From Convolutriloba macropyga (Eukaryota): a stretch of DNA of 64,000 nt. The notes under the pieces were generated by a model, which made no database searches, had not been told where the DNA came from, and worked only from the letters and a program-made list of their open reading frames with translations. Shown here piece by piece: positions 1 to 39,925 of this stretch (positions are counted from its first letter, which is position 1; every line of letters starts with the position of its first letter). The stretch spans positions 19,158,001-19,222,000 of the forward strand of contig NC_134475.1 in the NCBI RefSeq assembly GCF_964194025.1, in the 5' to 3' direction. The translations under genes and the position numbers were made by a program.

Positions 1-267
1 ACCGAAGATCAATTAGATTCGGGTGGAGGCATAACTGACTTGGTTTTTGACGCCGAGCACCAAGAAAGACAATCTTGGAGGTTTTGCAATTCGAGATTGC
101 CTCGATCAGAGGTTGTATACTTTACACAAATCATTATAATAATTTTTCTTATAACTGTATCTCTCACCAAGTTGGTTTTTTTCAGTCTTGACTGTGAAGA
201 ATCCACATTTTGGTTTTCACTTCTTTCTTGTACAGTTGGATACGCTCTTCCAAATCCAAAGTTATGA
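1..267 (+). CDS. Small two-TM-helix protein of Polinton/adintovirus type (5' partial)
   Basis: Frame is open from base 1. Hydrophobic YFTQIIIIIFLITVSL and C-terminal WFSLLSCTVGYALPNPKL; stop overlaps the ATPase ATG (ATGA 264-267). Confidence 0.7.
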   Translation, partial: TEDQLDSGGGITDLVFDAEHQERQSWRFCNSRLPRSEVVYFTQIIIIIFLITVSLTKLVFFSLDCEESTFWFSLLSCTVGYALPNPKL

Positions 268-995
268 ATAAAGTTATTTCTACCAATGACCGGTTGTTCA
301 TGGCTGTTTGCGGGCCGTCTTGCTGCGGAAAAACTGAGCTCATTTTCAAAATGTTATTAGTTGGCACATTTTTCCCAGAGTTTCAAACAATTTATTATTT
401 TTATCAGCATGATCAGCCAAAATTCCAATCGTTAGAGAAGAAACTGAACATACATTTTAAAAAATTCTCCAATTTTGAGCTCATTTCAGAGTTAGAGAAC
501 TGCCTTCTTGTGTTCGATGATTCATGTGAAGAAATTTTTAATGACAAAGAATTTTCCAAATTAGCAACCGCAGGGCGACATAGAAACATCAGTGTAATTT
601 ATGTTAAACACAATTTGTTCCAGCAAAGCAGATGGTCCAGAACAATTGATCTAAACACAACACATATCATATTGTTCAAATCACCCCGTGACACACAACA
701 GATTAGTTTTATTGGTCGACAGTTGAATAATGCACAATTTTTAAAAGAAAGCTATGAGCTCGCAACCAAAGAACCGTTTGGTCATTTATTAGTTGATTTG
801 GATCCAAAAACATCAGACGTCTTGCGCTACTGTTCAAATATTGTTCCTCCAGGACCATCAATTTTTTATCTGCCATCAGCTAAAGCCGTTATCACAAATT
901 TGAGCGATGAGAGAGAAAGAAGTTTGTATGCTGGGGCGGCTGCTAGACATATCGGATACAAAACTAAAAGAGAAGATCGAGAGAGCTCCAAATAA
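264..995 (+). CDS. A32/FtsK-like DNA packaging ATPase
   Basis: Walker A GPSCCGKT, Walker B LLVFDD, A32-type GRHRNISVI motif; first ATG at 264. Confidence 0.93.
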   Translation: MNKVISTNDRLFMAVCGPSCCGKTELIFKMLLVGTFFPEFQTIYYFYQHDQPKFQSLEKKLNIHFKKFSNFELISELENCLLVFDDSCEEIFNDKEFSKLATAGRHRNISVIYVKHNLFQQSRWSRTIDLNTTHIILFKSPRDTQQISFIGRQLNNAQFLKESYELATKEPFGHLLVDLDPKTSDVLRYCSNIVPPGPSIFYLPSAKAVITNLSDERERSLYAGAAARHIGYKTKREDRESSK

Positions 996-1206
996 ATTCA
1001 TTAAATTCCTTTGCGAATGTTTGCTCAACATTGTCAATGGTAATGTGCCAATAAGAAAAAGTGTTGTAGAAGGTTATGAAAAATCATTCAGAAAGCTATT
1101 GTCTAGACAAACAAGTTTGAAAGAAAAGAGGCAGATTTTTGCTAGAGAAACAGATTTGGTCAAAATTGTTGGTTTCGCTTGTTATCGATATTTGACAAAA
1201 TCATAA
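928..1206 (+). CDS. Conserved small Polinton protein (CECxxNxxxGN type)
   Basis: FLCECLLNIVNGNVPI resembles the short ORF usually found next to Polinton ATPases. ATG at 928 (alternative 907); TAATG coupling to the next ORF. Confidence 0.7.
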   Translation: MLGRLLDISDTKLKEKIERAPNKFIKFLCECLLNIVNGNVPIRKSVVEGYEKSFRKLLSRQTSLKEKRQIFARETDLVKIVGFACYRYLTKS

Positions 1207-1958
1207 TGCGCACCGAAGAATTCATTTTAATTCCAAAACGAATGTTTGCTTCACATCAACCGGTAAAAAAAGAAGTTTTGGACAATCCCCTTTATAAACA
1301 GAAAGCTGCACAGCTGTCTCTTTTGCAAAGAAACCAGTCCAACTCAATGGAAAAACCAGAGAAAGCATTTGAACCAGTTGAGACTGCAAACAAACTGATG
1401 ATTGAAACAGCAGAAGAGGAGAAAACAGAACCCATGAGCGAAGACAGCGAGATTGAACCGGTAGTGAAAAAACAAAGAAAAAGCGACGATTTCACCTCTA
1501 TAATGATAGAGCTAGAAGTTATGAATAAAAACCAAATCAAAAGATCAAAAATCATACTTGACTTGATTAACCAATCTGAAACAGTCACCATAGAGTCGAA
1601 CGACGTTCTTCACGTTAATAAAGAAACACTGGGCATCAAAGCTTCAACATTTCTGTACAATCTACAGCAACCAACTAAAAAAATTGACATTGAAAAATAC
1701 TCAAAAATTTTATTTGCTCTTAATATCTCACCTCATCTTGTTGCAAATACACATGCCAAGCAAATCTTGGAAGCCTCGTCTGAAAGTGAACAAGAATTTT
1801 TCCCAAGTAGAGAACAACCCAGTCAACAAGAGTTCTCCTCTACTGGAGAACGACTCAGTGGCTCAAAACCAACCCGAAAAAAATATAAAGAAGAAACGGA
1901 CCAAACGCCAGACAAAGAAGAGACCAGTCAAGATGTGGTCTTTCTTTTCCTGAAGTAA
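1206..1958 (+). CDS. Polinton hypothetical protein (about 250 aa)
   Basis: ATG at 1206 overlaps the upstream stop (TAATG); long ORF in the viral cassette; no recognisable catalytic motif. Confidence 0.7.
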   Translation: MRTEEFILIPKRMFASHQPVKKEVLDNPLYKQKAAQLSLLQRNQSNSMEKPEKAFEPVETANKLMIETAEEEKTEPMSEDSEIEPVVKKQRKSDDFTSIMIELEVMNKNQIKRSKIILDLINQSETVTIESNDVLHVNKETLGIKASTFLYNLQQPTKKIDIEKYSKILFALNISPHLVANTHAKQILEASSESEQEFFPSREQPSQQEFSSTGERLSGSKPTRKKYKEETDQTPDKEETSQDVVFLFLK

Positions 1959-1963
1959 AAAAA

Positions 1964-2881
1964 ATGGATCAGTTGTATTTAAAAGAACCAGCTTCGTATG
2001 GAAGCATAAAACGACTACAGACTCAAAGCAAGCTCCCTATAGGCAAAGTCCTGTCCTATTTGGAGACAAAGCCGTCTTTCACAAAGTACCGTTCAATTCG
2101 ATTAAAATTTCCTAGGCTTAAAGTTTTTGTAAAAGACATTAACGAAATTTGGTCTCTAGATTTGGCACACGTTGATAAATTAGCAAAGTATAACCGCAAC
2201 ATCAAGTATCTCCTAGTAGCGGTTGATTGTTTGTCAAGATATTTACGAGTGGAACCTTTAAAAACAAAGTACGCAACAGAAGCAGCTGAAGCATTCAAAA
2301 AGATGATCAAAAACAAACAGCCCGAAAAAGTATGGGTTGACGATGGCACAGAATTTCTGGGAGAATTCAAACAATTGTGCAACAAACGCGGAATTCAGTT
2401 ATATAGTACTTTCAGTGAAAAAAAGTCAGCTTTTGCAGAGAGGAACATTAGATCTCTCAAAAAGATAATTCATCGGTATCTCGAAGAAAAGTGGACCTAT
2501 AGCTACATTGACCAATTAGACCAATTTGTGAAAACAATCAATTCAAGAGTCAATCGAGTAACTAAAATTGCTCCCAACAAAGTTACAAAAAAAGATGTGC
2601 CACGACTAGTTTCATTGACAGTCCAAACAAGCTCAAATCAGAAGCCCAAGTTTTACATTGGAGACTTTGTGAGAATAGTTAAAAAAGATAAAGCATTCAG
2701 GAAAAGTTACAAGCAATCGTTCACAGACGAAGTCTTTGAAATAACGGGAATACCGACATTAAGCCCACCAACATACTCCTTAGTCGACACAGACAAAGAA
2801 CCAATTCAAGGAAAATTTTATCAACCAGAATTACAACTTGTCAGGCTCCCTCTCGTTGAAAATGTCCAACAACCGGTTTGA
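1964..2881 (+). CDS. Retroviral-like (c-int) DDE integrase
   Basis: Catalytic triad in WSLDLA, WVDDGTEF and FAERNIR; C-terminal KFYIGDFVRI...GKFYQPELQ typical of Polinton integrases. Confidence 0.95.
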   Translation: MDQLYLKEPASYGSIKRLQTQSKLPIGKVLSYLETKPSFTKYRSIRLKFPRLKVFVKDINEIWSLDLAHVDKLAKYNRNIKYLLVAVDCLSRYLRVEPLKTKYATEAAEAFKKMIKNKQPEKVWVDDGTEFLGEFKQLCNKRGIQLYSTFSEKKSAFAERNIRSLKKIIHRYLEEKWTYSYIDQLDQFVKTINSRVNRVTKIAPNKVTKKDVPRLVSLTVQTSSNQKPKFYIGDFVRIVKKDKAFRKSYKQSFTDEVFEITGIPTLSPPTYSLVDTDKEPIQGKFYQPELQLVRLPLVENVQQPV

Positions 2882-3673
2882 AGACGAGTTTACAGTTCAC
2901 GTTGTTTCATCCGCTTCAATGGAAATATTGGATTCAAACACACTTGCATCATTTCGAAATTTTTTTAATGACGAAATTCAACTTTTAATGACGTCATTTT
3001 TTTTAATGACGTCATTAAAAATTTCGAAATTTTTAATGACGAAATTATTTCTAGACCTTATAGTGGACAACAATTTAGTTTTATGCCAGGAACCTTTGAT
3101 ACAGTGGCACAACTTCTTGCTACAATTAAGCGAACAATTGGACTGCCCAATTTTTCTTTCAGAGAGTTGAAGAGCTCTGGAAAATATGAAATTTTATTTG
3201 GCAAATATGAGGGAATTACATTTCCCAGCGAGGAAATTCCGAGCATTATTGGATTTAAGGGTATTCCTGACGGTAATGGAATACATATTGGGTACAAAAT
3301 GATTCCCAATGCGAACAGGTTTATGAAAAGTGATGATACGAAAGCTTATTATGGGGAGTTCCCAGCTGATCTTTGTGCTGGAAAGCATCTAATTTTCATC
3401 TACACTAACATAATTGAATATCAATACGTTGGTGACACTAAGGCTCCTCTTTTGCGAGTCATTGATTCAAAACAACGTCTGAAAAACGGTAGTGTTTGTG
3501 AGCTTGAGCCAACTCATCGGATAGTTTTTACAAATTTAGACTATAAGAAGCTCCTAACCAACACAATTCAATCGATTTCAATTGAACTGAGAACGGAAAC
3601 AGGACAATTAGTTCCCTTTTCGGGAACTGGAAAAGTTATTCTAACACTACAATTCAAAAAATTTTCCTCCTAA
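2862..3673 (+). pseudogene. Minor capsid (penton-like) protein, disrupted by deletion and frameshift at about 2975-3046
   Basis: N-terminus MSNNRFEDEFTVHVVSSASMEI...NTLASFRN (ATG 2862) and C-terminus IFIYTNIIEYQYVGDTKAPLLRVI...ILTLQFKK (ORF 3083-3673) lie in different frames, separated by a scrambled palindromic patch. Confidence 0.85.
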
Positions 3674-3674
3674 A

Positions 3675-4097
3675 ATGGATTCTTATTATGCGAATCAAGC
3701 AACGTCTTTGCCTCACTTCTCTGGACATTATCGTCAAAGAGGAAGTGGTTTTGGAGCCCTAGCTGCAGGCATTGGACGTGTTGCGCTGCCTTTAGCACGT
3801 CGTTTCATTTTGCCTACAGCGAAGCGTATCGGGAAAGAGCTTTTGAAACAAAGTGTTCCAGAGATTTTGGATGTAGTCGGAAGCAAAAAATCTCCTAAAC
3901 AGGCGTTTAAAGATACAATCGCAAAAACTGTTAAAAAACAGACTGGGGGATCTCGACGAAATACTTCACGTCGGAGGAATTCAAGTCGAGTCAAGCCACA
4001 GAAAGCGATCAACAAACGCAAAAAAACCATTTCAACGCACAGAGCTCCAAAAAGAAGTCGGTCAGATTTTTTTGCCAGAGTGAACGATGATCGCTAA
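3675..4097 (+). CDS. Basic core/DNA-condensing-like virion protein
   Basis: QRGSGFG N-terminal motif, QTGGS and an Arg/Lys-rich C-terminal half; lies between minor and major capsid genes. Confidence 0.75.
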   Translation: MDSYYANQATSLPHFSGHYRQRGSGFGALAAGIGRVALPLARRFILPTAKRIGKELLKQSVPEILDVVGSKKSPKQAFKDTIAKTVKKQTGGSRRNTSRRRNSSRVKPQKAINKRKKTISTHRAPKRSRSDFFARVNDDR

Positions 4098-5379
4098 TTT
4101 GTTACCATCAGAAGCAACTCACAGTTCTTTGGATTTATTCGAAAAACCTTCTCTTTTAGTAACTTTCGATGGTAGTTTTTGTCAAAAGTTGGGCCCAGTC
4201 TACAGTCCAAATGGACCCATGTTAGAATTTGAAGTCGCCGGTGACCGAAATAATTTTATTGACTTACAGAAAATTTTCTTGGAAGTAAAATGTAAAATTG
4301 TCCAGTCATCAGAAGCTGATTTGAGATATGACGCAGGAGCAGCAACAGATGTTACGAAGACAGATGCTCCCTATTTTTGCAATAATGTGTTACATTCACT
4401 CTTCTCTGACTGTACAGTGTCTGCTAATGGACTAAAAATTTCAAACGCTAACGGAAACTATGCTCATAAAAGTTTTATTGAAGCAGAATTTTCACATAAC
4501 AAAGATGCAAAAAACACCTGGTTGGCATGTCAGGGTTACTCCTACGAAGAAAATCCAGGAGCGCTGTCAACTGCGGAAGTGAACAGAAGGAAAGCCTTAG
4601 TGAGGCAATCAGCTGAGTGCACATTCTACGGTAAAGTTGCAGTCGACTTTTTCACCTGTGACAGACATTTGCTAAGTGGTGTGACACTTCGCATTGCATT
4701 TAGACGGTCAATAGATGATTTTGTTATAATGTCTGACGATGCTACCAAGCACTACAAAGTAAAAATTGTCGAAGCTAATTTGTATGTGCGCAAGATGACA
4801 TTGAACGATGATGTTGTATCGGCTATTGAAAAAACTTTCAATCCCTACCTGGAGACTCTAACAAAAACGTTTCTGGCGTCAACGGGTCTCCACAGTTGGA
4901 AACAAGAAGATATTTTTGCCAGAGAACCGATTCGTAGACTAGCAATTTGTCTGAACACTAACGAAGCGTTTCTTGGTAACAACAGACAAAATCCATTTAA
5001 TTTCCGCAAATTCAACCTTGAGCAGATTTATATTTATCGAAACGGTTTACCTGTGGCAGACAGTCCGATATCAACAAGTGATGACAAACGTCTTTACTTT
5101 AACACAATATCCGATTTAGCTTACATCGACAATGGTCATGGAATAAGTTTGACAGATTACCCAAATCATTTCATAATGGTTTTTGATTTGACCAGCACCC
5201 AACAAGCATCCCACGATTTTATTCATCCTGAGCTCACAAATTCGTCAATTTCTATTGAGTTGAAATTTTCTGCGGCCTTACCGAACAATATAGAAATATT
5301 CATTATTGGCGAAAAAGCTAGCACAATATTTGTTGATAGTGCAAGAAGAGTATCAAAGAATCACATTCTGACAAATTAA
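4087..5379 (+). CDS. Major capsid protein (double jelly-roll, hexon-like)
   Basis: SSLDLFE N-terminus, LEFEV, NNVLHSLFS, NPFNFRKF and FDLT motifs of Polinton MCPs; 430 aa. Confidence 0.93.
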   Translation: MIANLLPSEATHSSLDLFEKPSLLVTFDGSFCQKLGPVYSPNGPMLEFEVAGDRNNFIDLQKIFLEVKCKIVQSSEADLRYDAGAATDVTKTDAPYFCNNVLHSLFSDCTVSANGLKISNANGNYAHKSFIEAEFSHNKDAKNTWLACQGYSYEENPGALSTAEVNRRKALVRQSAECTFYGKVAVDFFTCDRHLLSGVTLRIAFRRSIDDFVIMSDDATKHYKVKIVEANLYVRKMTLNDDVVSAIEKTFNPYLETLTKTFLASTGLHSWKQEDIFAREPIRRLAICLNTNEAFLGNNRQNPFNFRKFNLEQIYIYRNGLPVADSPISTSDDKRLYFNTISDLAYIDNGHGISLTDYPNHFIMVFDLTSTQQASHDFIHPELTNSSISIELKFSAALPNNIEIFIIGEKASTIFVDSARRVSKNHILTN

Positions 5380-5381
5380 TA

Positions 5382-5813
5382 ATGGATGAAGATGATATTA
5401 ATGGTTTAATCCAAGGTTGCAAAACTCTTAAATATAAATTCCATGGTGTGTTTGCGGCCAACAACTTTCCGGAAAAAATGAACAGAAACAGCTTCCTTAT
5501 TGTTAATGCAGCGACTGCTGAAAATATTGGCAGCCACTGGTTACTATTATGCAGAAAAAACAATCAACTTTTGTTTGCCGATCCCCTTGGTCAGCCCATT
5601 TCATCGTACAAACACCTATATCAAAGAATCGTTTCCGTTGGCAGCAATCACAACATCTATCAACTCTTGGAGAATCAACCAATTCAAAGAGCAAACTCTA
5701 AACTTTGTGGACTTTTTTGTATTTATATTGCTCATTTTGTTTTCAATGCTCAAAAACTTGTAAATATTAGCGATAATGAATTGATTCGTTTCGCTTTTCA
5801 TATGATGTTCTAA
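5382..5813 (+). CDS. Adenain-like cysteine maturation protease
   Basis: His in GSHWLL, Asp in FADPLG, oxyanion Gln and catalytic Cys in IQ...LCGLFC. Confidence 0.92.
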   Translation: MDEDDINGLIQGCKTLKYKFHGVFAANNFPEKMNRNSFLIVNAATAENIGSHWLLLCRKNNQLLFADPLGQPISSYKHLYQRIVSVGSNHNIYQLLENQPIQRANSKLCGLFCIYIAHFVFNAQKLVNISDNELIRFAFHMMF

Positions 5814-5843
5814 CCTTACTAACTTGAGAAATTTATTTTTTTT

Positions 5844-6536
5844 TCAAAACTTTACTTTTTCTTCATACACAAAGCGAACACTCAATAAATCAGAATCAAT
5901 ATTCAATTTTCCATATCCACTCATAAAAATATCCATAATTTGACAAAAAGCGCCAGAATGAGGACCATACAAAATTGTTTCAACTCTTCGTAAAGTTTCA
6001 CTATTAACAAAATCAGTTTGAACTTGTTTCGATGGAGGCCGGGCATTGTAGATAGTTTTTTGAGCAACTACTGGCATCTTGGCACTCGGTTTGAGATTGA
6101 CATTTGTTTGTTTTGCAGAGCTGCTTTTCGATAAATTGTTGTGGTTAGCAAAAGCTGGCAGTCGTTTGCGCACTGACTGTGAATCGGTTTTTTCTCCCGA
6201 ACCGTTGAATTCGATTGCCAATTTGAGTTTTGTAAAAACGTCTCCATTAGTCTCCAAGTTTGGTGCAGTCCAAAACAAGAATTTGAAAGCTGTATAAACA
6301 CAAGGCACAGGAAAGCTCTGATATCGTTTCACTGTTTCGTTTTCAAAAGTAGTTGTATCAATCAGAACGTGATAATGACTGTTTACTAAATTGCAAAATT
6401 CGGAATCAAAATGTGCACACACTGCATAAAAATTTCCAATAGAAAAGCTAGGTTTTTCTTCAAGAATGAGAAATTTGAACTGTTTCTGAAATTGTTTAAA
6501 GTAATTTGGAGAACGCTCAAACATCGCCTCAACCAT
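5844..6536 (-). CDS. Hypothetical protein with an HUH-like motif (HYHVLI)
   Basis: 230-aa ORF from ATG 6536, overlapping the end of the upstream PC4-like ORF; contains AVCAH...SHYHVLID. Confidence 0.65.
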   Translation of the reverse strand: MVEAMFERSPNYFKQFQKQFKFLILEEKPSFSIGNFYAVCAHFDSEFCNLVNSHYHVLIDTTTFENETVKRYQSFPVPCVYTAFKFLFWTAPNLETNGDVFTKLKLAIEFNGSGEKTDSQSVRKRLPAFANHNNLSKSSSAKQTNVNLKPSAKMPVVAQKTIYNARPPSKQVQTDFVNSETLRRVETILYGPHSGAFCQIMDIFMSGYGKLNIDSDLLSVRFVYEEKVKF

Positions 6537-6846
6537 CGTTGTTGGCAACTTCTTTTTGAATTTTTGGTTTCTTCGCTAGTGGTGGTTTTGTTGTTGACAG
6601 CTGGTCAGCCACTGAGTTCTGTATTTTGCTAGCTGAGCTGACCAAATTTTCAAACTCTCCAAGAGTTAGAGAAATTCTCTGTTCAAACTCGTAATCGTCT
6701 GTTGCTTTTTTGAACAATTTCAGAAATACATATGTCCCTGTCCTTTCATAGGTTTTCAGCGTTGCTCTGATTAAGCGCTTATCAGTTTTGGAAATATCGA
6801 AATAATAATCTCCAAACTCTGTGTCTTTAGTGGACGTGAAAGGCAT
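6529..6846 (-). CDS. PC4/Sub1-like ssDNA-binding protein
   Basis: YFDIS..KRLIRATL..Y...YVFLKLF...QRISLTLGEFENL matches the PC4 beta-sheet plus ISLTxxxW/F helix pattern; basic tail PPLAKKPK. Confidence 0.65.
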   Translation of the reverse strand: MPFTSTKDTEFGDYYFDISKTDKRLIRATLKTYERTGTYVFLKLFKKATDDYEFEQRISLTLGEFENLVSSASKIQNSVADQLSTTKPPLAKKPKIQKEVANNDG

Positions 6847-7061
6847 AGTGTGCAACTTGTTTTATTATTTTCAAGTGTTATAATGTGTAAAACTCCAACT
6901 CAATGGGGCGGCAAGTTGGGTTTAAACAAGTGTCGTCAAACTGCCTAATTAAATCCAAATGATTTGTGAATACAGGCTCAAGTACGCCTATGGCGTACTT
7001 GAGTCTGTCTGTTGTTCACATATTGCATAATTAATTTCAGCTGTGACCTTAGATAAGACAA

Positions 7062-7366
7062 AAAACATATGTGAACCTAGGTGTGTACTTGGACCAGCAG
7101 TGCACTGTACACTTTTTATTGGAATTATATGCGTACCATATGTTTTGAGAACACAAATGTGAGCCACCCTGGTTGGGTATTTGAACAAGCAGTGCAGTGT
7201 ACACTGTTTATTGATATTATATGCGGACCACATGTTTTGGTTCTATAGAGAAAACAGATGTGACCCTAGGTGTGTATTTGGACCAGCAGTGCAGTGTACA
7301 CTGTTTATTGGAATTATATGCGGACCATATGTTTATAACTTGGAACAGATGCGACCCTGGGTGTGT
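7062..7366. repeat. 3.3-copy tandem array of about 86-103-bp palindromic units inside the Polinton
   Basis: Units start at about 7062, 7150, 7251 and 7344 (partial). Shared core GGTGTGTAYTTGGACCAGCAGTGCASTGTACACTKTTTATTGGAATTATATGCGKACCATATGTTT, with unit 2 more diverged. Confidence 0.9.
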
Positions 7367-7764
7367 GATATAATTAGAAGCACAAGTGAACCTACAGCAG
7401 TAAGGAAATTCTGATAAGAATAAACATGCACCAGCGTACAATGAAATGCTAATAATAAAATACGCTCTGGATAAGAACTGAGTTAGTACACACTATAAAG
7501 TGTATCGACCCATGTATAATAACAAAATTTAGAGCATATATCAGAGCACATACACTACCAAAATTAAAACCATATTTGACCCCAGATATAATTTGTTGAA
7601 TTACACGTTGTGCAATATTACTTTAAAAATAGTTATTCATTTTCTTTAAACCTTGCGTTCAGTGCACTTTGCTTTCTTTAAACAGTTCGTTACCAGACAA
7701 ACACCTACCAACAGTCTTCTATCAAATTGGTTTTAGTTTCTTTCTCAAAATTTGGACAAAAATT

Positions 7765-8460
7765 ATGTCCGTTCAAATACTTGCTGAATCTGTAATTTCC
7801 TTGGAGCGAACATTGGTTTATCAGACAGTGTTCGAAAACTTTGTTGTGCTTATTCAACAGAAGAGACAAGGCGATGTTTGGCAAACTTACCAGCACTGCT
7901 TGATACCCAAGCTTTTCATTAACGCAATTGCTTCTTTACCAGAGAAGACAGAACCAGCAGATTGCAGTGTTATTACATCAGGAGGACATTTACCTCCAAA
8001 AACTTTGCCAACATTTCAACATCTTGGCATGGAGTCATTACCTGACGACGTTAAACGAATTTTGTTTCGTTACGATTGCGACTGTGTGCCTCTGTTTGAA
8101 AACCAGCTAGGGGCTTATCAGGCTTGCGAAAACTTAGCTGACATGTGGGGCATAAAGTCATCACCTTGCTCCCCAGAAAATCAATCCCAATTGGATTCAG
8201 CCAGCTTGCCAGTAACACCAGCAGTTGATCCGAGTCCCAGTTTGACACCGACATCTAGTCCATCTCTCTTTGCGGGAATTCACAAGAACAATTCTACGGC
8301 TCTGTTCAGTGACAACCAGTTTGATACAACGTTACTGTCAGCTACACAATTTCAAACACCAGAACCAGCACGTGTTTTTGGTGTCACAGACACGCCAAAG
8401 ATTTGCAATGCACCAAAGAAACGGCTACCTGAGAATACTTTAATGGACTTATTTGATTAA
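7765..8460 (+). CDS. Polinton orphan protein (231 aa, Ser/Pro/Thr-rich C-terminus)
   Basis: Long ORF with first ATG at 7765; no recognisable domain. Confidence 0.65.
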   Translation: MSVQILAESVISLERTLVYQTVFENFVVLIQQKRQGDVWQTYQHCLIPKLFINAIASLPEKTEPADCSVITSGGHLPPKTLPTFQHLGMESLPDDVKRILFRYDCDCVPLFENQLGAYQACENLADMWGIKSSPCSPENQSQLDSASLPVTPAVDPSPSLTPTSSPSLFAGIHKNNSTALFSDNQFDTTLLSATQFQTPEPARVFGVTDTPKICNAPKKRLPENTLMDLFD

Positions 8461-9989
8461 CTTGAAAACTAAACTTAATGGATCACCACAAAACTTTTAT
8501 ATAGTGAGATGCTAACTTGATTTTGTTTCAAGAATGTGTGATTTCAACTTTTTAAAAGCTGAATTTAACTTTTTAAATCTGTTTTATAGCTTTAAATCTG
8601 CTGAGTCAAAGAAATTAAAACATTGCTACTGATCAAGTTCGAACATGTTCAGAAAAGACTTTCATTATAACGTAAACATTTGTTTCCTAACAAACACTCA
8701 ATTATTACAACTACTATGACGTGGTGAGATTTTTCAATATTATATCCAGAAATACTTTTCCCAATCTGCAAAACTTTTGTTATTATTATATATATTAAAC
8801 ATAAAGTTTAGAGATATAGCCATATATGAGAGTATGCGGTATTGACGCTAATAACATGTTAACTCCATGCCACAGCTGTAGCATGGATTGAATTCCAAAT
8901 TCAATTCATAAGTCGAAGAACTGTTCAAAAAATAAAAAATAATCAAAGAAAATATTTCGAAAAAATGCATTTCAAACGTCAAATTTTGACACTTAATTCA
9001 GTAGATGCCCTCTTCAGCTTACACTAGAATCAACTCTCATTTGTTACTTGGGGATCAATTGAAAAAAAAGAGCATGTTAGTTTGAAAAAAAAACGAAAAA
9101 AACTCAAAAAAAAAATTTTTTTTAACACATGACCTCTGACCTTTGACCCCAAAAAAGAGGGTTCCAAAAAATACTTGGGATGAAACTGATTGTTCAGTAA
9201 GACTCAGCATACTCTAAAGTACAAAACATCTCATCACACTCGTCAAATTTTACTCATCCGTTATGGAGATAATTAGCCTCTAATTAGCGACTAATTAAGG
9301 GTTAATTAACCTAATTACTAATTACTGAAAAAAAATTCAAATTTTTGCAACGGTTTTGTACTCACTGCTTGATGCCCGACATTATTGCTCATAAGCATCA
9401 TCATCAAAAAACGGCTCCTTCACCGATTTTCGAAACATCTGGCAATTAATGTCACATTAACATCTGGCATTAATTAGCATATGAAGTACCCTAAGGAAAG
9501 ATGTTAGATTGGTTTTCTTTAAATTTTTGGACTTTTTGGGCCCTCAGTGTAAATTTATCTCATAACAGCTGTCATCAAAAAAGGCCTCAGAAAAAAGACA
9601 CATGTTTATGTCATGTAATTGTCATGTAATTGTTAATTAATGACTTGATTGACAGAAAAACAAACTTTTTTTCTGTTTATTTTTGAGCAATTTTTTTATA
9701 TGGGTCCTATGTTTTTCGGCACGGGGAGCATTTTTGCTCATCACACTTAAGAACGTAGGACAACTCTAACCATCCGTAATTGAAAATGCATAAAATAGCG
9801 CTTTTTATTACAATTTTGAATATTAGCATGTTTTTCCAGGTTCTCAAAAAAAGTTTTTTGACACAAACGATGATCAGCAATACTCGGTAGGGTTCCCTGT
9901 TGTGGTATATTTTGGCATACGATTGCAATGGAGAGTTGAAAACACATCTTTTTTCTCTCAAAAGTAACAAAATTTCGAAATAAAGGTAT

Positions 9990-10042
9990 GCGCCCAAACC
10001 GACCAATCAGAAAACAGCATTTCAAAACTTCGAATTTGGCGC
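9990..10042 (+). promoter_or_regulatory. Putative PolB promoter with E2F-like, CCAAT and CHR-like motifs
   Basis: GCGCCCAAA 9990-9998, CCAAT 10003-10007, TTCAAA 10021-10026 and TTTGGCGC 10035-10042, 120-170 bp upstream of the ATG. Motif match only. Confidence 0.35.
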
Positions 10043-10161
10043 CTATGCAGTACTGTAGTCTCTAATACTGTAAACCCGAGAAGCCATTTCTTGTTCATTC
10101 GTTTCTACTGTTCGTACTCGAGTTTAACAATTCGTTCTTACTAAAGTTAGACAATTCAAAA

Positions 10162-13100
10162 ATGGGTTTCCAGTGTCGTTATTGTGATTCTATTCTGAGT
10201 ACAAAAGGAAATCGCTCCAGGCATGAGCATAAATTCCATCCTGATGAGATTGGTTTACCCGTATATCAATGCTCATTATGTGAGTTTACTTGTCGGAAGA
10301 TTTCTTTGCTCGAAGAACACATGAAAACTGCACACCAACGATTCACCAATTGCTGTCAAAGCTGCCTACTCGGATTCAACGATTGCCATCTTTACGTACA
10401 GCATATGACTTCCGTTCATCACTTACCCGTCCTAGGTGAACAATTTCAGCCTCGAGACACTCCGTTGGAAAGTGCATTCCATGGAGTACTGAGATCGTTC
10501 GAGTCAACAGCGGCCGAAGAGTCCAATGATCTCGAAAACTTTATGCGGATACAAAAACCCAAAATAGACACTCTAATAAGTGAGCAGTTGACCCAGGGTC
10601 CTCAAAAAGTTCAACTGTGTGCAAAATTGCGGCTTGTCAAAGTTATGTATGATGAGCCAGATATGCCAGAAGATGACCGTATTGAAATATACGCAAACTC
10701 TCTGATGACTCCTGTTTATGCAAACGGACTGTTGGATGAAGCGTATTGGCAAATGGTGGAGAAGATGATGAGCGTATTGACAACATTCAACTCTTTGGGG
10801 AGTGGTTGGACACTCGAAAAAGTTCTCAAAGTTGACGTCAAATTCGCGCGTTTCAGACCAATTCATGGTTCATCATACATCGCGTTGCCGTCAAAAATTG
10901 CCAACTGCAGAGGATTGCTCAACGTTAGGAACCATGAAGATCGAGATTGCTTCAGGTATTGTTTTGTGGCCGCTTATCACATGTATCATCAGATAAGTTT
11001 AGATAGAATTGATCGAAACTATCAAACCGACAAAACTTCACCAACTACATACAATCAACCAGGACTGCATCAACCTCTGGGCGATTTTACTATGCCCATG
11101 GGCTTTGCAGACATTCCTCAATTTGAAACACTCAACAACGTTCAGGTAAACGTGTTTGGATACGATAACGGCCAGTTTTTCCCTCTAAAAATTTCGTCAT
11201 ACAGCTCAGATTTTGTAATGGATCTACTTTTGCTGTACGACTGTGACCGTCATCACTACGTCCTCATTACAAACCTGGTGAAGGTTGTTTGCTACGTGCG
11301 AGGACTTGATTACAGATTCTCCTACAAAGTTTGTCGAAACTGTTTTTTGATTTGTCGAGAAGGACTTGAAAGTTACAACCTACATCTCAATAACTGTTGC
11401 AAAAATGCACCTGCTGTTATTCATATGCCTTCAAGTGAGAACAACTCATACAAATTCACGAACTTGGCTGCTACATGGTTTGTCCCTCTTGTTATCTATT
11501 TTGACTTCGAGTCTTTCTTACGACCCGTGTCTTCTTGCAAGGGACCAAGTGATAAAGCCTTTACACAGGTCAAGGAGATACATGAACCGTGTGGCTTTGC
11601 GCTAACAGTGATAGATCACCACTCATCAAAGCCAATCTTTCATCATGTAGACAGTTCTCCTGCTTGCATGACAAATTTTGTCAAAATGCTTCACAAACTA
11701 GCCAGAGATATTCATCAGCAGAAAAGGAAGCACCCTTTCTTCAAAGGCGATAGACGAAACTTGGGAAAGTCTAACGCTACGCACTGTTGGATTTGTGAAA
11801 AATCGTTTTCAGAAACGGAAGATCCAGAGAACACAATTGACCTGGACCATTGCCACTACAGTGGTAAATTCTTGGGATGGGCACATGAGAAATGCAATCG
11901 CTTGAGACGAAATATCAATTTCACCCCTGTTGTGGGTCATAATATTCAAAATTATGACTTACATCACATTTGTTTGGCACTGAACAACTGCGAGCCAACC
12001 ACAACCATCAGCGTCATACCAGCCACCGACGAAAAATACATATCAATGACATTTGGTGTGCTTATTGACACTTTCGTAACGGAAAAGGGAAAAACAGTGA
12101 AAGTTTACGAATATCTTCGATTCATAGACTCCTTCAAGATGATGAACAGTTCTTTAGAGAAACTTGTTGAAATTTTACCCAATGACCGTTTCGAAATAAT
12201 GAGGGCAATGTTTTCTACATTATCTGATGCTAACCTTCAGCTACTTAAACAGAAAGGCTACTACCCTTACTCTTATGTGACTAGTCGGTCCAAGTTCAGT
12301 GACACCAGTCTCCCGCCACTGAGCAAGTGGGGTAACACTCTGGACGGAGGGGCAGTGAAGGTAACGGAGACTAATTTACAACATGCACGCAGGATGTGGG
12401 AAATTCTGGAATGTGGAACACTGCAGGATTATCATGACTCATACTTGAAGCTCGACTGTGCACTACTCGCATGTGTTTGCGAATTCCATCGACAGTTGAG
12501 TTTCGATACGTATAAACTGGACTGTATGCACTTCTTCACCCTACCCAATATGGCTAAGGAAGCATCACTTAGAATCTGCAAAGCCAATGTCGAGTTACTG
12601 ACTGAGCGCGAACACTTGGACATGATTGAACCCGCAATTCGCGGTGGAGTCACATCTGTCTTTGAAAGTCGGCGCTTCACTGCAAATAACTCCTATATTC
12701 CCAACCACGATAGCACGGAGGAATCCTGTTTTGGTTTCTGCGTCGACGCTAATAACCTTTATGGTGGCGTAATGCAATTAGAGAAACTACCGCTCGCCGA
12801 CTTTTCGTTCAACACAGATATTCAACTTCATGAGATTTTGGACACCGCCGATGACGCTAGCATTGGATACTTTGTAGAGGTCGATATCTCTTACCCGCCG
12901 AGCCTTCATGATGAGCATCGCGATTTTCCGTTGGCGCCCACAAAAGACGTGGTTGAAGATGAGTGGTTGAGCGATTACCAGATCGAATTAAAAGAACAAC
13001 ACAATCTCCCATCTTCCAAAGTAAAGAAACTCCTGCAAACGTTCTTTGATAAAGAGAGATATGTGGTCCACTACAAACTGCTGAAACTTTATGTCCAACT

Positions 13101-14504
13101 CGGCTTGGTAATCAGGAAAGTTCACAGAGTGCTTCAATTTCGACAAGAAAACTGGCTGTCGCCATACATTACACTAAATAGTGAAAAGCGGCAAGTTGTG
13201 TCAAACAAGTTTGAAGAGAACTTTTATAAACTGATGAATAATGCAGTTTATGGTAAAAACTGCGAATCGAAAAGACGCAGAAATAAAATAACAATCTCAC
13301 GAGATGCCGAGCATGCGCTGAAAATAATATCCAGATTTGAGTTTGATCGCTATATGATCTTTGGGGAGAATTTAGCAGCCTTGACCACACGACCAAAGTC
13401 CATTTATTGGAACACTCCAACTATTGTGGGAGCGACTATATTAGATCTTGCAAAATTCCACATGTACTCATTCCATTACAATGTCATGCGCCCCAACTTT
13501 AATTGTCGCCTTCTTTACAGCGATACAGATAGTCTCCTTTATGCGATAAAAAGCGACGATTTTTATACAGAGTTATCGCAGAAGCCTCAGTCAGTATTAA
13601 GTCATTTTGATTTCTCAAATTACCCACCCAATCACTTTCTTTACGATACCACTAACAAAAGAGTCGTCCTCAAATACAAGGACGAATTCGCCGGCGACTA
13701 TATTACTGACTTTATCTGTTTGAAGCCGAAGCTGTACTCCATCCTGTCAAAAAGTAAGTTTATTCTCTCATAAAACAAAATTGTTAGTTGTTGTATAAAA
13801 ATTCGTATTGGGTTAATAGGCATCTGGAAGGTGTTAAATCGTATTATATTTACATAGGGGGTTAGTAATTATAATAGCACCTAATTTTTCTCATTTCTTT
13901 CTTTCTTTTAGGTTGTCGAAAACTTTCAGCAAAAGGGGTGACGAGGGCCGCACAACAACATCTTCGCCACGTCGACTTCCTAAACACTCTCAGCACTGGA
14001 AACCACCTGCGCTCAGAGAACACCAGGATTGTGTCCGACCACCACAGGCTGCAGACAGTTACTACAAACAAAATTTGTCTGTCAGCTTTTGACAACAAGC
14101 GCTATATACTACCCGATGGCACAAAAACCCTCCCGTTTGGCCATTATGAAATTGTCGATTATGCTATCGATGAAATTGATTGGAATAACGACGATGTGGA
14201 ATGGGATTATGACGATTTTAGCGACTTACTTTTGAGCTCTAGCCCAGATTGGGATAACAGTTTTGTACCACATTCCTCTCCAGATACCACCCAAAGCTCC
14301 AACACATGGCAACCACCAGACCCCGGTTTTGTCGCTGCTCAGAATATAAATGATTCGGATATTGAAAGTAGCGATATCGTTGATTTCGATGCCAGTTTTG
14401 AAGAAAACTCTACGCCCGATAATCCGTTCATTAATTTTGAGGCAGAAGAAGCAAGTGAAAGCGAGTCAGAGGGCCCAGTGTGCAAAACTGCAAGGCGATA
14501 TTAG
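10162..14504 (+). CDS. Protein-primed family B DNA polymerase; exons 10162-13753 and 13912-14504 (about 1394 aa)
   Basis: ExoI YFDFES, ExoII HNIQNYD, ExoIII YLKLD, PolA DANNLYG, PolB KLMNNAVYGK, PolC YSDTDS. Splicing GTAAGT(13754)...TTTTAG(13911) joins LKPKLYSILSK-S-CRKLSAKGV in frame. Three N-terminal C2H2 fingers and an EndoVII-like insert. Confidence 0.95.
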
Positions 14505-14639
14505 TGTGCATAATTAAATTTAATTGCCCAGAGAGAGACACGCAAAACTGAACCAGTATTGATTTTGCATGCAGTGTGATATTTGGTTTTAATTTAATTT
14601 GTTTGAGTGTTTTGAAATCAAAAGCAAGCGGCGAGACAG

Positions 14640-14831
14640 AAGGCAAAGTTAAAGGGAAACAAAAGCGGCAAGACTCAAAAGGGAATGATTGAATAGGAGA
14701 GGGATATAAACAGCGGCGGAAAGATTTTATCCCGCCTATCCTATTCCCACTTAACCGCCACTACCTATTATCCTATGGTTAAGAGTCGAATGATAACCCC
14801 CCCTTTCTTTACGTAGGTATTATATACTACT
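14640..14831. repeat. Right terminal region/TIR of the Polinton; predicted 6-bp TSD GTGGTC at 14832-14837
   Basis: Ends in ACTACT. The inner TIR boundary cannot be set because the left TIR is outside the window. Confidence 0.65.
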
Positions 14832-15886
14832 GTGGTCTGTATGTAATAATCTCTAGTGCCGTCATTTCAAATCCCTTTTTGACTTTATATCACACGCACG
14901 GTTAAATGAAGGCAATGTTATCCCGCCGGTTGTCTTGGAGCAATTTGAGCGATTCTGTTTCACATTTTTATGCCAGCCGCACTTTGTTCAGAAACTTTTT
15001 GACTTTTTTGATGGCATCGTTTCAAGAAATTCTTATTTCAAAAAGTAAGAGATAATTTTTGTCCTATTTCAGCCCCCGATTTTTGACTATTTTTGGCATA
15101 CTTTGGCGATTTTCAGAAATTTTGTTTTTAATTAATTTTCCAAGATGGACTACTTCTATGAGATATCATTTTACCGTTAATTTTATTTTAATCTTATTCT
15201 AATAGTTGATATATTGTTTTGGCGGTTTTTTAAAAATGAACTTTATGCTACCTTAATATTTTCGGGCTATTTTAAAAATTGAGGATATCACAGAACCAAT
15301 TGTCTTATTTCATTTCAATGCTTTCTCTGAGCCTACAATTGAACAATCATTATTTCCTTAAGAGTTGCAGTTTCTGAAAAATAATTTATGATGAAATCTC
15401 CGACTAATTTGCAATTTTTTGAAACACATTTTTTCTCATTTTTAACATACTTTCGGAATTTTAATTTATTTATTTCATTAATAAACGTTGTCTTAATGTT
15501 CTCGGCATCCGAATTTGAGTTCACAAAGAAAGGAAATTTTAGTTTTTTAGCAATTTATAAGGAAACTTTTTTTCCATATATTAGACCAGTTTGGTTAATT
15601 AATTAATTTTGGATATTTTGCTTCCTCCTTTAGTCATCCACTCTTTTGGATTTCTCAAATTTAGGGAATGAGATGCATATCAGCTCAAAGTTTTAAAATC
15701 CAGAAGAAAATTTTCTTTCAGAATATTTAATTGGACAGCTTTGTGATATATGGCAGAAAAAAAGCGATATAAAGCAAAACAATTGTCTGTTTCGATTGAA
15801 ATACATAACTTTGAAATATCTAGAGACAAAAGGTTAATGCTGGATTTTTCAGTTCAATTTACCAACTGTAAGCTCAACTTTGATTT

Positions 15887-18373: not shown

Positions 18374-19341
18374 GTTGGGGCTGGGGTTTCTTTCCTTGTC
18401 TTTCTCGTTCACCTTTTATCTGTCGCACACTATATCGGTTTTTCCTTGACTCTTTTATTGATGCCGCACTTCAGCTGCTGTTATTTGGCGTGATGTCATC
18501 ATATTTTACCCTCACCTCACGCCCATTCAATTAAGCTAAAGCTAGCCTTACTAAACCGTGGCTATCTACTGACGAATCCAAGCTACTGATAAAGTCAGAA
18601 CAAATTAAATGGTCAAAACACAATAAACAAACAAAATACTTTTCGGGGTTAAAAAACAGTAAAGTTTTGACGATGTTACATAAATTAGAGCAATTTTGGT
18701 TTTGGAAGCATAAAGTCCAACGGTCGAGGGATTGTATGTGGACACCCGTTCACAATCTTGTTGTTCTTTCCGCGATTGTTTAAAGATTCTGCGCTGAAAA
18801 TTCGTTTTGTACAATTTTTGGGGCCTTACAAATCTTTGTGTTTCTTTGGAGCAGTATTGTGCTTCTCCTGAAACAGGCGACTATTAAGAGCAGTTATTGA
18901 CATTTTGTTCTGAAAAAGATTGATTTTCCCATTTCAAGTCTTTCAATTTTGATTATGAGTTCTCCAACGTACATATGTTGACAAAATTTTCAACCATCCT
19001 ATTGCTATATTCAGTAGTATGCTGCTTCTGGCTGAAGAACTACGTTTTTTAGCGCTCTCTTTGAATTAATTGTCTTTTTCTCGTGTTTTTGAGCCAATTA
19101 TTTTTGTCAGAAATGTTTTCGGCTGTTGTGCTTTTGCAAACTTATAGAAATTGATTTGTCAAGTCGACCGCAGTTATCATAATTCGATTATCATTTGAAA
19201 AAAACACAAACACGTGAATTGTAAATTCGGAGCCATGTAATTGGCAGACTCCAAAAGTTTGAGCGCTATATAAACTTTAGCGCGCATTTATCAGAGAAAA
19301 ATTTATGCGTGCACCAACAACAAATTTAATTTGAAATGTAA

Positions 19342-22294
19342 CAACAAGGATGCTCGGTAATGTGCGTAAGCACATAATGTTCCGACCCCGCTCATCCACA
19401 TTCTTAACTTAATTGGCTACCAAATGATGAAGAGATCAAAAACATAGATATCGTTCAATAAACAACAAATGGAATATAATAATGCCACGCTAGAGGGCCG
19501 ATGACAGTTTTTGATAATAGAACTACTAAAAAGGACCATTAAAAAAATCATGAAACAAACATTATTTACAACCACAACTCGATGTCTACAATAAAAGAAA
19601 TCATAAAATCAAACTCGCGTCAGATAAAATCTAAACAAAACAGTTTAATCTATTGGATCTCATGCGACTGGTTAACAGGTCGATAAAAAGTGAAAAATAG
19701 CAAAGAGGTGCAAAGTTAAAAAATACGTTTCTATTTTTGAAAACAGTTAACTTCACAGTTAATGTCATTAGATATCACCTGAAGTCACCGATTTTTTCAT
19801 GTATATCTCCAAAGCAAGCAATTGAGATATACCAGAATCCAATCTTCAATTGCGCAAAAATTTAAAGCCAATGGGACTTACGATTTTTGTTATAAAACCA
19901 AAAAGAAAACCAAAATAGAAAATCCTCTAAAATGTACAAATATCTAAAAATCTCAAACATTTTGAAGTCTCGTAGGAAAAGTAGTAAAAACCCAAGGATC
20001 GAAAGTTTGAAGCTATAACTGTTACCAGGGTTAATTTATAGCTCACTGCAAACGGGTTGTGACATGTGTTTACAAAGACTGAACTACAATTTGACAAAAA
20101 AAACTATTTTAAAAAATGACAAAGCTCAAAAACCCAAATTTGTTTTGGAAACAAATATTTCCAAAGGTCATAACAGATTTAAGATTTCAACAAAAATTGG
20201 GCCTACTAATAATGAGACCACGCCACGACCCAATGAGACAAAATAACAAATACATAACAACCACACAAAGAAGCCAAAACTTCAAACAATTTTACATCAC
20301 ACTCTTCAAGGCACTATACTTATAAGATGTTACTCGTAAGAACTGTAATTCATCTATTACTCCTCATCCTAACATCAATGAGGCTTCCCCATAAAAGGAC
20401 AACGTAGACACGACAACAAAAAGAAACCTGAAAATTGAACAGTATATAAATCTCGAAAAATTTTATTTAAAATAAATGGTCGAAGCAATCAGTCACAACG
20501 TATAACAAAGCGCAATAAAAGTGGATGAATCATCACACGTAACTAAGACTAATAATCAGTGTTATTGAGTTACATGGTGACCAAATTGAAAGCCAAAAGA
20601 TACAGTTGAAAAAAACTGTTTTAAGAAATTCAATTTGAAATTCTTTAAAACAAACAGCTATAAACTGAAATCTTTATCTAGGTGGAGTTATACGTCCTGG
20701 GGAAGCAATTGGGACCTATCGTTATCAGGTGTATGGCGGACAACAACAAAAGGTAAGAGAAACATAGAAAAAACAACAACAAATCCACAAAAATTTGCTG
20801 TATAACTTTAACTCAGCCCAAAAAGCATAAACTATTCAACAAAAACAATTAATATATACAGATACGCATTTTTCAACGCTGTTCAATTTTCCTACTATGT
20901 TTTCTTTCAATTAGATTTGCCAACAATGTGATAATTCGAGAAGGAAACGAAATGGACTCATAAAAATGCAATTATGCTCAAAAATGAAAATGAAATTTTT
21001 TTTTGAAAACACGTAGTATCAAAACAAGGAAAACAAAAATTGAATATAAAATTGTTGCCAACAATAATATATAACTCACACGGAATTGTTGTTTGCCTGT
21101 TTTTACTAAGTCGCCCGAAATTGAGAGAAATAAGATAAAATAGTGGCAAATTTCAAAGACTCACCGATCTTTTCTTAAAACAAATATATTCAAAGTCATA
21201 AGAGACTTTAGATAACAACTGAATGAATTTTCTAGGTTCATCTATACCTAAAAAATTAGCTGCATCTTTGACTGGGGACACTCAGTCGTTGGGCTACAAA
21301 AAGTATAACAAATGAAAGCAAAACTCAAGAAGTCTATAAAATTTTTACGAAAACAATTGGTCAAAGCCATAAAAATCATGAGCTCAACTATTAAAACATA
21401 TTAAAATTTCGTTGGACATCTTTTTTGCAAATAGAATTTGTCATTAAATCAGCCCTGATTTGAGATTCCTATCAGCAATTTACATAAAACCATTTACATA
21501 GCTGAAATGATTTGAAAAAAAGGTCAAGCCCCATTTAAATCTAAAAAATTTTTTATCTTACGGATCCACGGTGAGAACAAGATCAGCCCAGATATTGCTG
21601 CGCATCTAACAAAACAATCAGTTGTTCAAATGATTGCGAAATAGATCAATTTTTAAACGAAATTTTTAGTTCGTCAAAAAAAATAATGTTTTATTTGTAA
21701 TTATCGAGTTTAAGTTTGCAAAAAACTTGCAAAATTATGATCCAGAAGACTCATAAAGCCAGCGGGGTTACAATTAGATCCTTTCTGAGCTTAAGAAGAT
21801 TTCCACCGCATTTTTAAGGTTTCTACTTCCAGCAAATTTAAAGCAGGTGGGCTAAAAAAACAAATGTCATATTTTTCTCGAAAAAAATGTAGCATAAAAT
21901 CTAGCATCTTGATTTTTGAAAAATTTCGCATAAATTCTAGCCAAAAAACTCGGATGGAAGAACTCAGCAACCCCCTTTTATCTTAAGAGATGAAATAAAA
22001 AGCAGTACGGTTAAAAATTTTTCATTTTTGCAAAATTGACAAAAATTTGGTCAAAAATACTGAAAATGTGAATAAAAACAGCAATTATTCACAAACCCTT
22101 AAACCTCGATAACTCCCTATAAAAAGCGAAAAATGAAAAAATCTTTTTAATTCCTTATTTGACGCTGAACTTGCTTTCTAATGATACCACTCACAACTGT
22201 CTACGATGATTATATCCATCGGCCAAAATTGACTGAACAAAAAAACCCATTTAAATATATAGTTACTCCCCCCACAATTGGGGTCGGAGCAATT
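19342..22294 (-). mobile_element. HINE-like family B element
   Basis: Subterminal inverted repeat TTCCGACCCC / GGGGTCGGA; hairpin ATGTGC-GTAA-GCACAT near the 3' end; shared GATACCACTCACAACT...CTACGAT block; non-coding. Confidence 0.75.
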
Positions 22295-23282
22295 ATACGA
22301 CACAGATAGATCAGTTTAATAGCTTCGAAGTCAAGAAAAGTCAGTAAATTGCTTTAAGTGAGCCAGGGAAATTAAATTTCTAGAGGTTTTGAGTTAGCTT
22401 TTATTGATGCCGCACTTCAGTTGTGTTATATGGCGTGATGTCATCATATTTTACCCTCACCTCACGCCCATTCAATTAAGCTAAAGCTAGCCTTACTAAA
22501 CCGTGGCGAGCTACTGACGAATGCAAGCTACTGATAAAGTCAGAACAAAAGAAATGGTCAAAACACAATAAACAAACAAAATACTTTTCGGGATTAAACA
22601 GTAAAGTTTTGACGATGTTACATAAATTAGAGCAATTGTGGTTTTGGAAGCATAAAGTCCACCGGTCGAGGGATTGTATGTGGACACCCGTTCACAATCT
22701 TGTTGTTCTTTCCGCGATTTTTCAAAAATTCTGCGCTGAAAATTCGTTTTGTACAGTTTTTGGGGCCTTACAAATCTTTGTGTTTCTTTGGAGCGGTATT
22801 GTGCTTCTCCTGAAACAGGCGACTATTAAGAGCAGTTATTGACAATTTGTTTTGAAAAAGATTGATTTTCCCAATTCAAGTCTTTCGATTTTGATTATGA
22901 GTTCTCCAACGTACATATGTTGACAAAATTTTCAACCATCCTATTGCTATATTCAGTAGTATGCTGCTTCTGGCAGAGGAAGAACTACGTTTTTTAGCGC
23001 TCTCTTTGAATTAATTGTTTTTTCTCGTGTTTTTGAGCAAATTATTTTTGTCAGAAATGTTTCGGCTGTTGTGCTTTCGCAAACTTATAGAAATTGATTT
23101 GTCAAGTCGACCGCAGTTATCATAATTCGATTATCATTTGAAAAAAACACAAACACGTGAATTGTAAATTCGGAATCATGTAATTGGCAGACTCCAAAAG
23201 TTTGAGCGCTATATAAACTTTAGCGCGCATTTATCAGAGAAAAATTTATGCGTGCACCAACAACAAATTTAATTTAAAATGT

Positions 23283-38534: not shown

Positions 38535-38543
38535 TGTGGAACA

Positions 38544-39793: not shown

Positions 39794-39925
39794 TACGAGT
39801 AATATCACTCAATTGAATATAATATCAGATATCATCTTTAAAATTTAGTTATGGATAAATTTTGCATTTATGATAAATTTTAGTGTCAGTAGTATATTTT
39901 TTCTAGGCATGTTAGTTTTCTATAA

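Follow-up and report, generated by a model that had tools for sequence, protein, structure and literature searches.

A shared spliceosomal-type intron in the DNA polymerase gene of Polinton elements of Convolutriloba macropyga

Introduction

The stretch of Convolutriloba macropyga DNA analysed here (64,000 nucleotides, contig NC_134475.1, positions 19,158,001 to 19,222,000; hereafter the window) carries a Polinton whose family B DNA polymerase gene (PolB) is interrupted by 158 nucleotides near its 3' end. An original prediction had read the interruption as a spliceosomal intron in a class of elements whose core genes are described as intron-less. That description is borne out by two sources in their accessible text: the genes of intact Mavericks/Polintons are without introns in PMC8097293, where large insertions called introns by Genewise are taken as decay, and the core genes are intron-less, with introns in cargo genes, in 10.1101/2022.07.12.499685. 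The accessible portions of PMC10748475, PMC8502044, PMC11161782 and PMC4028283 do not mention introns in pPolB, and a literature search (main text of mostly open-access articles) found no description of such a spliceosomal intron, conserved in the polymerase of animal Polintons. The question raised by this locus is whether the 158 nucleotides are a defect of one copy, an intron that is routinely removed, or an element of control.

Polinton element of the window

The Polinton takes up the first 14.8 kb of the window, which is the larger part of the element; the whole extends from G000:C8:19156221 to window position 14831 (16.6 kb). Its ends and its genes other than PolB are as follows.

G000:C8:19156221-19156347: left terminal inverted repeat, 98% identity to the right copy
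14706..14831: right terminal inverted repeat, ending in ...TATACTACT, 98% identity to the left copy over 128 nt
14832..14837: 6-bp target-site duplication GTGGTC, identical to the 6 bp ahead of the left end
264..995, plus strand: packaging ATPase (A32-like), PF04665, E 3e-5
1964..2881, plus strand: retroviral-type integrase, PF00665, E 5e-9
4087..5379, plus strand: probable major capsid protein, named from its size, its position and relatives called 'F54H12.2-like'
5382..5813, plus strand: adenovirus-type protease, PF00770, E 3e-6

The termini of the approximately 126-bp repeat read AGTAGT...ACTACT, and GTGGTC flanks the element on either side as the 6-bp target-site duplication of a Polinton/Maverick; inverted repeats with (AGT)2//(ACT)2 or (AG)3//(CT)3 ends are the mark of these elements in the accessible text of PMC8097293. 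The matches to PF00665, PF04665 and PF00770 each exceed their own curated cut-off, which gives the gene set of a Polinton/Maverick, and PF03175, the protein-primed family B polymerase, is likewise above its cut-off. The ATPase, integrase, protease and probable capsid genes are each a single ORF in the window. The descriptive, non-defining Polinton trait of intron-less core genes is absent here, as PolB is split.

The probable capsid ORF (430 aa) had no match in a Pfam search, and its single-sequence fold reached a pLDDT of only 35; it has many relatives of about 436 aa, part of them named F54H12.2-like, a name which we take to be a Polinton capsid marker. A phage search gave no match. The gene ahead of the probable capsid (2862-3673) is broken into two frames of 102 and 196 aa. 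Because this gene is split and the capsid ORF has 430 aa against 436 in close relatives, the window copy shows some decay. The family itself is large, with 389 candidates in a DNA search, and all 40 scored candidates match the whole 601-nt query at 99-100%; it is young and recently multiplying.

Three 84-nt direct repeats, spaced at 92-97 nt, lie at 7062-7334, in the interval that separates the element's divergent gene blocks. When subfamily C (L291-L294) was compared with window positions 264-13753, the ATPase, integrase and probable capsid were 90-97% identical and PolB 61-75%. As the two are alike outside PolB and diverged within it, gene modules are exchanged between families. Elsewhere in the window, a tandem duplication with a period of ~3.95 kb and 88-99% identity occupies ~18480-26210, with related pieces at ~42-44 kb and inverted ones at ~53-57 kb, and host genes are located at 35340-41754: DUF4528 (35340-35744), KTI12-like (38942-39793) and CDC45 (40294-41754, a 486-aa frame).

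Intron of the PolB gene

The PolB gene of the window is composed of three parts.

10162..13753, plus strand: PolB exon 1, 1197 codons and 1 nt; ORF with PF03175 (DNA_pol_B_2), E 7e-9 on 12400-13752
13754..13911, plus strand: GT-AG intron, 158 nt, phase 1, between the KxY and KG motifs
13912..14506, plus strand: PolB exon 2, 2 nt, 196 codons and the stop; KG motif, last palm strand, thumb and acidic tail

Exon 1 contains an N-terminal Zn-finger-like region, the exonuclease, the palm motifs A, B and C, and KxY (DANNLYG at aa 862, KLMNN at 1023, DTDS at 1121 and KLYS at 1190). A weak Endonuclease VII-like domain was also seen at aa 530-581 (~11750-11905; E 0.002, under the Pfam cut-off). The ORF at 10162-13773 comprises 1203 aa and terminates in KLYSILSKSKFILS, the final six residues being intron-encoded and the in-frame TAA lying inside the intron at 13771-13773. 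The frame from 13914 reads CRKLSAKGVTR...LSAFDNKRY...PFGHY, 196 aa up to the stop at 14506, and ATTAAA is found 3' of exon 2 at ~14513; neither AATAAA nor ATTAAA occurs inside the intron.

All features listed in the original prediction for this phase-1 intron are present in the sequence. The donor GTAAGT starts at 13754, CCTAAT is located at 13880-13885 and is followed by a T/C tract and the AG at 13910-13911, and there is no further AG in 13877-13910. In the joined product, KLYSILSK-X-CRKLSAKGV (X being the split codon), the spacing of the KxY and KG motifs is within 0-1 residue of that in intron-less relatives, in agreement with the expectation that removal restores the normal PolB C-terminus. 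The intron has a GC content of 27%, against 42% for exon 1 and 45% for exon 2. The hallmarks of a U2-type intron, i.e., the GT/GC donor consensus, the pyrimidine tract, the YAG acceptor and a frame-restoring phase, are all found. The CCTAAT motif exists as predicted; its proposed role as the branch point is doubtful, since the sister subfamilies B and C do not keep the motif.

The marks of a group I or group II self-splicing intron are lacking: an Rfam search of the intron gave no match at E up to 1, and no stable RNA fold was found (z-score -0.12). As regards introners, no inverted ends are visible on the intron, and all 40 scored full-length matches of the exon-containing query span both flanking exons. 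The sequence runs X1-X4, all from one study, cover the intron and intergenic DNA alike, which is DNA-like behaviour; they list no 13753^13912 joint and, being DNA-like, have no bearing on splicing.

Distribution of the intron in copies and families

Close copies keep the intron with its GT..AG ends at 30 of 30 fetched loci (one of them the window itself), with lengths of 155-162 nt. The lower-ranking hits of the exon-2 search supplied 20 diverged copies, most of which belong to subfamilies B (81% aa) and C (69% aa); the insertion and GT are present in all and AG in 19. A further 60 loci were found with other relatives as queries and represent 58 distinct copies (L224 = L278, L238 = L279); 55 of the 60 loci show GT/GC..AG in phase 1, one is uninterrupted and four were left unscored. 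When the three locus sets were pooled, proper ends were seen in 102 of the 103 loci with an insertion, out of 110 examined.

The grouping by eye of intron sequences in genome G000 yielded approximately 14 families, down to ~42% protein identity. RefSeq proteins attributed to the acoel Convolutriloba macropyga share 90% clusters with three of the families, and one of these proteins has matches of 96-100% in G000. The survey of related PolBs for the same split placed the intron at the same codon or the next one across these families and in two or three metagenome contigs. The private inactivating insertion, named with the original prediction as the outcome that would overturn it, fails as an explanation because sibling copies and distant families share the intron.

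The introns are unalignable between families, except for A/B/C and G/G2/H. Their lengths are 56-180 nt overall (85-177 nt in the G000 family representatives) and leave all three remainders when divided by three, and the phase is always 1. For family K the GTGAGT donor (150 nt) is likelier than the first donor candidate one codon earlier (153 nt). GC-AG ends occur in three groups, in the strong context AG/GCAAGT. GT/GC and AG were found at phase-1 positions in 16 of 16 family representatives, which are partly non-independent, against a chance of ~1.5% per family with two positions allowed per end.

Of the 112 metagenome and viral loci, 75 could be scored: 67 are continuous across the site, an insertion was seen in three, and the other five proved to be frameshifts or projection artefacts. 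The insertions at the site are 63 nt in L111 and 56 nt in L163, while that of L140 has a degenerate acceptor. An alignment scan of viral contigs returned only distant relatives, none with the intron among those scorable; when the window's PolB or P0068 served as a single query on viral contigs, no relative was found. Many of the 120 database homologues stop just past KxY-S, before the KG motif, as would proteins cut by an intron-blind gene caller. Two database families were not found at high identity in G000: P0011 (best E-value hit 51%) and the FHYK-V family, P0063 (best E-value hit 63%).

Some single loci and clades deserve separate mention. In a copy of a GC-AG family (L258 = L309, G000:C4:41412.6 kb), an imprecise in-frame deletion removed most of the intron; the polymerase frame of this copy is broken further upstream. 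The intron of L249 is enlarged to ~880 nt by T-rich repeats, with the GT and CAG ends kept. The PolB clade of P0059, P0063-P0066, P0068 and P0069 ends at FHYK-V-S/G, which may mark a third site of intron insertion, in phase 0. Several ENA contigs carry members of the P0068 cluster and, at ~15.3 kb, are as long as a free element would be.

Exon 2 as part of the polymerase

The comparison of exon 2 in the spliced frame with subfamily B gave a dN/dS of 0.07-0.08; against subfamilies C and D the synonymous sites are saturated, and dN is 0.11-0.20 over the first 80 codons. Exon 2 is under purifying selection.

The structure model of a related RefSeq protein, P0222, based on a 60-row alignment, has a pLDDT of 92. 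It superposes on phi29 polymerase with Z 20.8 and rmsd 3.1 over 485 aligned residues (71-822 onto 48-575), whereas the best non-phi29 chain reaches Z 11.1. The fold search thus found a polymerase where the sequence search of PDB had returned none. The junction corresponds to residue 765, where the chain turns from the KxY strand (757-762) into the following one (767-771), and residues 766-822, which lie behind it, are aligned to phi29 polymerase, whose residues ~530-575 we take to be the thumb. On this model, the 1203-aa protein of an unspliced, intron-retaining message would lack the last palm strand as well as the thumb and for this reason would probably be inactive. The original prediction of a truncated, probably inactive product is in this respect backed by the modelled role of exon 2; it does not extend to L111, where retention would not truncate because the 63-nt intron is in frame and without a stop.

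Probable splicing of the intron

The RefSeq models P0163 and P0222 (families D and J) cross the junction at the predicted codon. The isoforms P0250 and P0251 join the phase-1 GT donor of a host Mx-like exon (C11:40798965) to the acceptor of a subfamily-C copy (~C11:40781533), skipping 17.4 kb. RefSeq isoforms usually rest on RNA reads; these four models may be predictions. Within G000:C11:40780931-40803512 (L076, L291-L294), the isoform models of the host Mx-like GTPase use Polinton exon 2 as their last exon, so that the modelled Mx protein ends in the thumb and acidic tail of the polymerase.

Judged from sequence features and gene models, splicing of the PolB intron in vivo by the host spliceosome is likely, and constitutive splicing is the most likely regime. 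The explanation which we favour, with good confidence, is that of an old host-type intron, common to related families at one codon, which the host spliceosome would remove as a routine, obligatory step to yield the full polymerase of ~1394 aa.

Second PolB intron

All intron-type sequences fall into one clade in trees built from exon-1 segments (support 0.969 with 101 rows; SH-aLRT 97.9 with 60 rows, i.e., after removal of 41 redundant or distant ones). A second shared PolB intron, in phase 2, was found at codon 332 (NVF-G/R), corresponding to window position ~11155.

Loci L263-L265, L278-L282, L295-L301, L111 and L181: codon-332 intron, phase 2, irrespective of whether the family has the C-terminal intron

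At 21 loci scored for this site, the intron is present in ten (E, J, K, M, L111, L181) and absent from ten (B, C, D, F, G, H), and one was not covered; the family of the window is without it. The G000 families A-D, F, G and H have the C-terminal intron only, and E, J, K and M have both. Other G000 families are continuous at the C-terminal site (30 of 30 loci), and the codon-332 donor was seen in seven of eight loci of families without the C-terminal intron, donors and not acceptors being scored.

This reciprocal pattern, in which every clade family of G000 checked at both sites has at least one intron, is what would be expected if the intron were kept as a licence, the 4.3-kb polymerase message needing at least one intron for export or for escape from HUSH-like silencing. 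The accessible text of PMC8770142 offers a precedent in the silencing of long intron-less transcripts in mammals. However, HUSH is described for vertebrates, and the families were sampled through queries, non-exhaustively. Moreover, more distant Polinton families of G000 are continuous at both sites (L303, in one 1333-aa frame, L304 and L307), as are the database proteins P0013, P0021, P0030 and P0035 inside the clade. The need for such a licence is compatible with routine removal of an old intron, and we regard it as rather doubtful.

Conservation of the intron interior

Subfamilies A, B and C show 46% three-way identity in the intron interior, whereas shuffles (n = 25) have a mean of 16% and a maximum of 24%. 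Four-fold sites are three-way identical far less often, in 27 of 249 cases in exon 1 (11%) and in 6 of 44 in exon 2 (14%). This exceeds the conservation expected of a neutral, constitutive intron, and plain constitutive splicing leaves the excess unexplained. Two blocks stand out in the A/B/C alignment.

13783..13789, plus strand: first conserved TTAGT block (donor-like GTTAGT)
13856..13868, plus strand: conserved AGGGG(G)TTAGTAA block, a G-run with donor-like GTTAGT at 13861, kept in A, B and C

The TTAGT repeats in the conserved blocks are ~26 nt apart. In family J the donor itself reads GTTAGT, and for this reason the blocks could be decoy donors; they also match the binding motifs of Musashi and hnRNP A1. 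In the family D intron two ACTAAC, the opposite sense, are found.

These blocks lend some substance to a regulated switch of the P-element kind, in which germ or stem cells would splice out the intron and other cells would retain it, or piRNAs would control it, with the thumb-less protein as a repressor and the TTAGT blocks and G-run as control elements. RTTAGT occurs two, four and four times in A, B and C against ~0.27 expected, in-frame stops are present in 15 of 16 representative introns, and a retained message of the window's family would have no downstream junction, as this is the sole intron of its PolB gene. A precedent is provided by the P element in the accessible text of PMC7776569. 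However, the RTTAGT count was made after the motif had been noticed, and 12 of the 13 other representative introns lack the motif in their interior, that of family E having one copy. Stops are expected in AT-rich introns, and the L111 intron is in frame without one. The donor GTAAGT is a strong consensus, no Rfam match or RNA fold was found in the intron, the non-coding DNA up- and downstream of the gene is likewise conserved above the shuffle level, and families without the C-terminal intron exist in the same genome. We consider such a switch unlikely. The same low probability applies to its widest form, in which a Polinton lineage would have ceded control of replication to the host spliceosome, with decoy donors toggling between active polymerase and thumb-less repressor and every clade family in the host keeping at least one of two ancient introns.

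Gene conversion was considered as a cause of the intron conservation. The four-fold sites adjoining the intron speak against it, having diverged no less than those further away (three-way identity at 2 of 13 and 0 of 15), but some mosaicism exists, since exon 2 of subfamily B lies closer to that of the window (60%) than does exon 1 (34%).

History of the intron

Continuous lineages are nested within the intron clade and also form its outgroup. Parsimony requires one gain and five losses for an ancestral intron and nine gains for independent origins. The number of losses is soft because the inner nodes of the trees are weak (SH-aLRT 11-30 at several). The intron state of 27 database proteins was called by eye from the ORF end, mostly without DNA, and some of the 'continuous' database proteins could derive from transcripts. 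Two features were not part of the original prediction: the great age of the intron, which extends across the clade, and the second shared intron. The trees point to a single gain in the ancestor of the PolB clade, after which the intron would have been lost about five times.

Repeated independent gains at an insertion hot-spot, a G/G proto-splice site in a surface loop, could also account for the shared position. In its favour, most families have introns that defy alignment, the position of the junction with respect to the flanking motifs varies by one codon from family to family, and the deep nodes of the tree are weak. The first of these points is expected in any case because synonymous sites are saturated between families, and the one-codon shifts match loop-length differences that are also present in intron-less relatives. 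Furthermore, the nine gains stand against one gain and five losses, and none of the 67 continuous metagenome and viral loci (mostly distant, 25-45%) carries the intron. Repeated gains are in our opinion quite improbable.

That the two PolB parts are joined at translation, by a frameshift or ribosome hop, or are made as two proteins is highly improbable: no support for either was found, the insert of 56-180 nt takes all remainders modulo three and yet keeps GT/GC..AG and phase, and there is no ATG in the exon-2 frame from 13878 to the stop at 14506. A disabling insertion or assembly artefact in a dead copy can be dismissed for practical purposes, since, although most fetched copies have frameshifts or stops elsewhere in PolB, the intron is present with conserved ends in all 30 close copies and ~14 families and is seen in independent sequence runs, and the family, being young (99% identical copies), multiplied with it in place.

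Comparison with known systems

An old intron that is removed as a matter of routine would have consequences beyond this locus. Polinton surveys, as described in the accessible text of PMC8097293, take uninterrupted ORFs as 'intact' and intron-like insertions as decay. Active lineages with an intron would be scored as dead or truncated because such surveys demand uninterrupted ORFs. Two ancient intron sites with reciprocal losses in a dozen families of one genome make a compact system for the study of intron loss and retention. If retention were regulated, it would offer a point of control, comparable to that of the P element, at which the unexplained dormancy of Polintons could be tested.

The element resembles the vertebrate and nematode Mavericks/Polintons, as far as these are covered by the accessible literature, in its (AGT)2 ends, 6-bp duplication, integrase, pPolB, ATPase, protease and size of 16.6 kb. 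It differs from them in that their core genes are given as intron-less, whereas here a conserved intron interrupts pPolB in a young family.

Introns within virus-like elements have precedents in the accessible text of two further sources. Group I introns occur in PLVs (PMC12220804), and introners occur in eupolintoviral elements of dinoflagellates (PMC12166617), which as in the present case are introns within full-length Polinton-type elements. The dinoflagellate introners are young, repetitive and transposon-made, of an age similar to or below that of other host copies (PMC12166617). The intron of the window, in contrast, is old, conserved in site over families of ~42% identity and without shared mobile sequence.

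The P element offers the closest parallel to a regulated intron. According to the accessible text of PMC7776569, its IVS3 is, like the intron of the window, the last intron near the 3' end of a key enzyme, its retention truncates the product and donor-like motifs are found nearby. The difference is that regulation, repressor and an exonic upstream silencer are demonstrated for the P element (PMC7776569), whereas for the intron of the window regulation is hypothetical and the motifs are intronic.

With an old inherited intron in their replicase, these virus-like elements would be bound to transcription in the nucleus and to the splicing machinery of the host, as adenoviruses are. In the latter, the E2B polymerase/pTP unit provides a related protein-primed polymerase from a spliced message, and one avian adenovirus transcript with an extra splice encodes a slightly truncated polymerase (both in the accessible text of PMC11304566). 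Adenovirus splicing, as given in the same text, serves mainly to attach 5' leader exons to a single large coding exon (PMC11304566), whereas the intron of the window cuts the polymerase at the boundary of palm and thumb.
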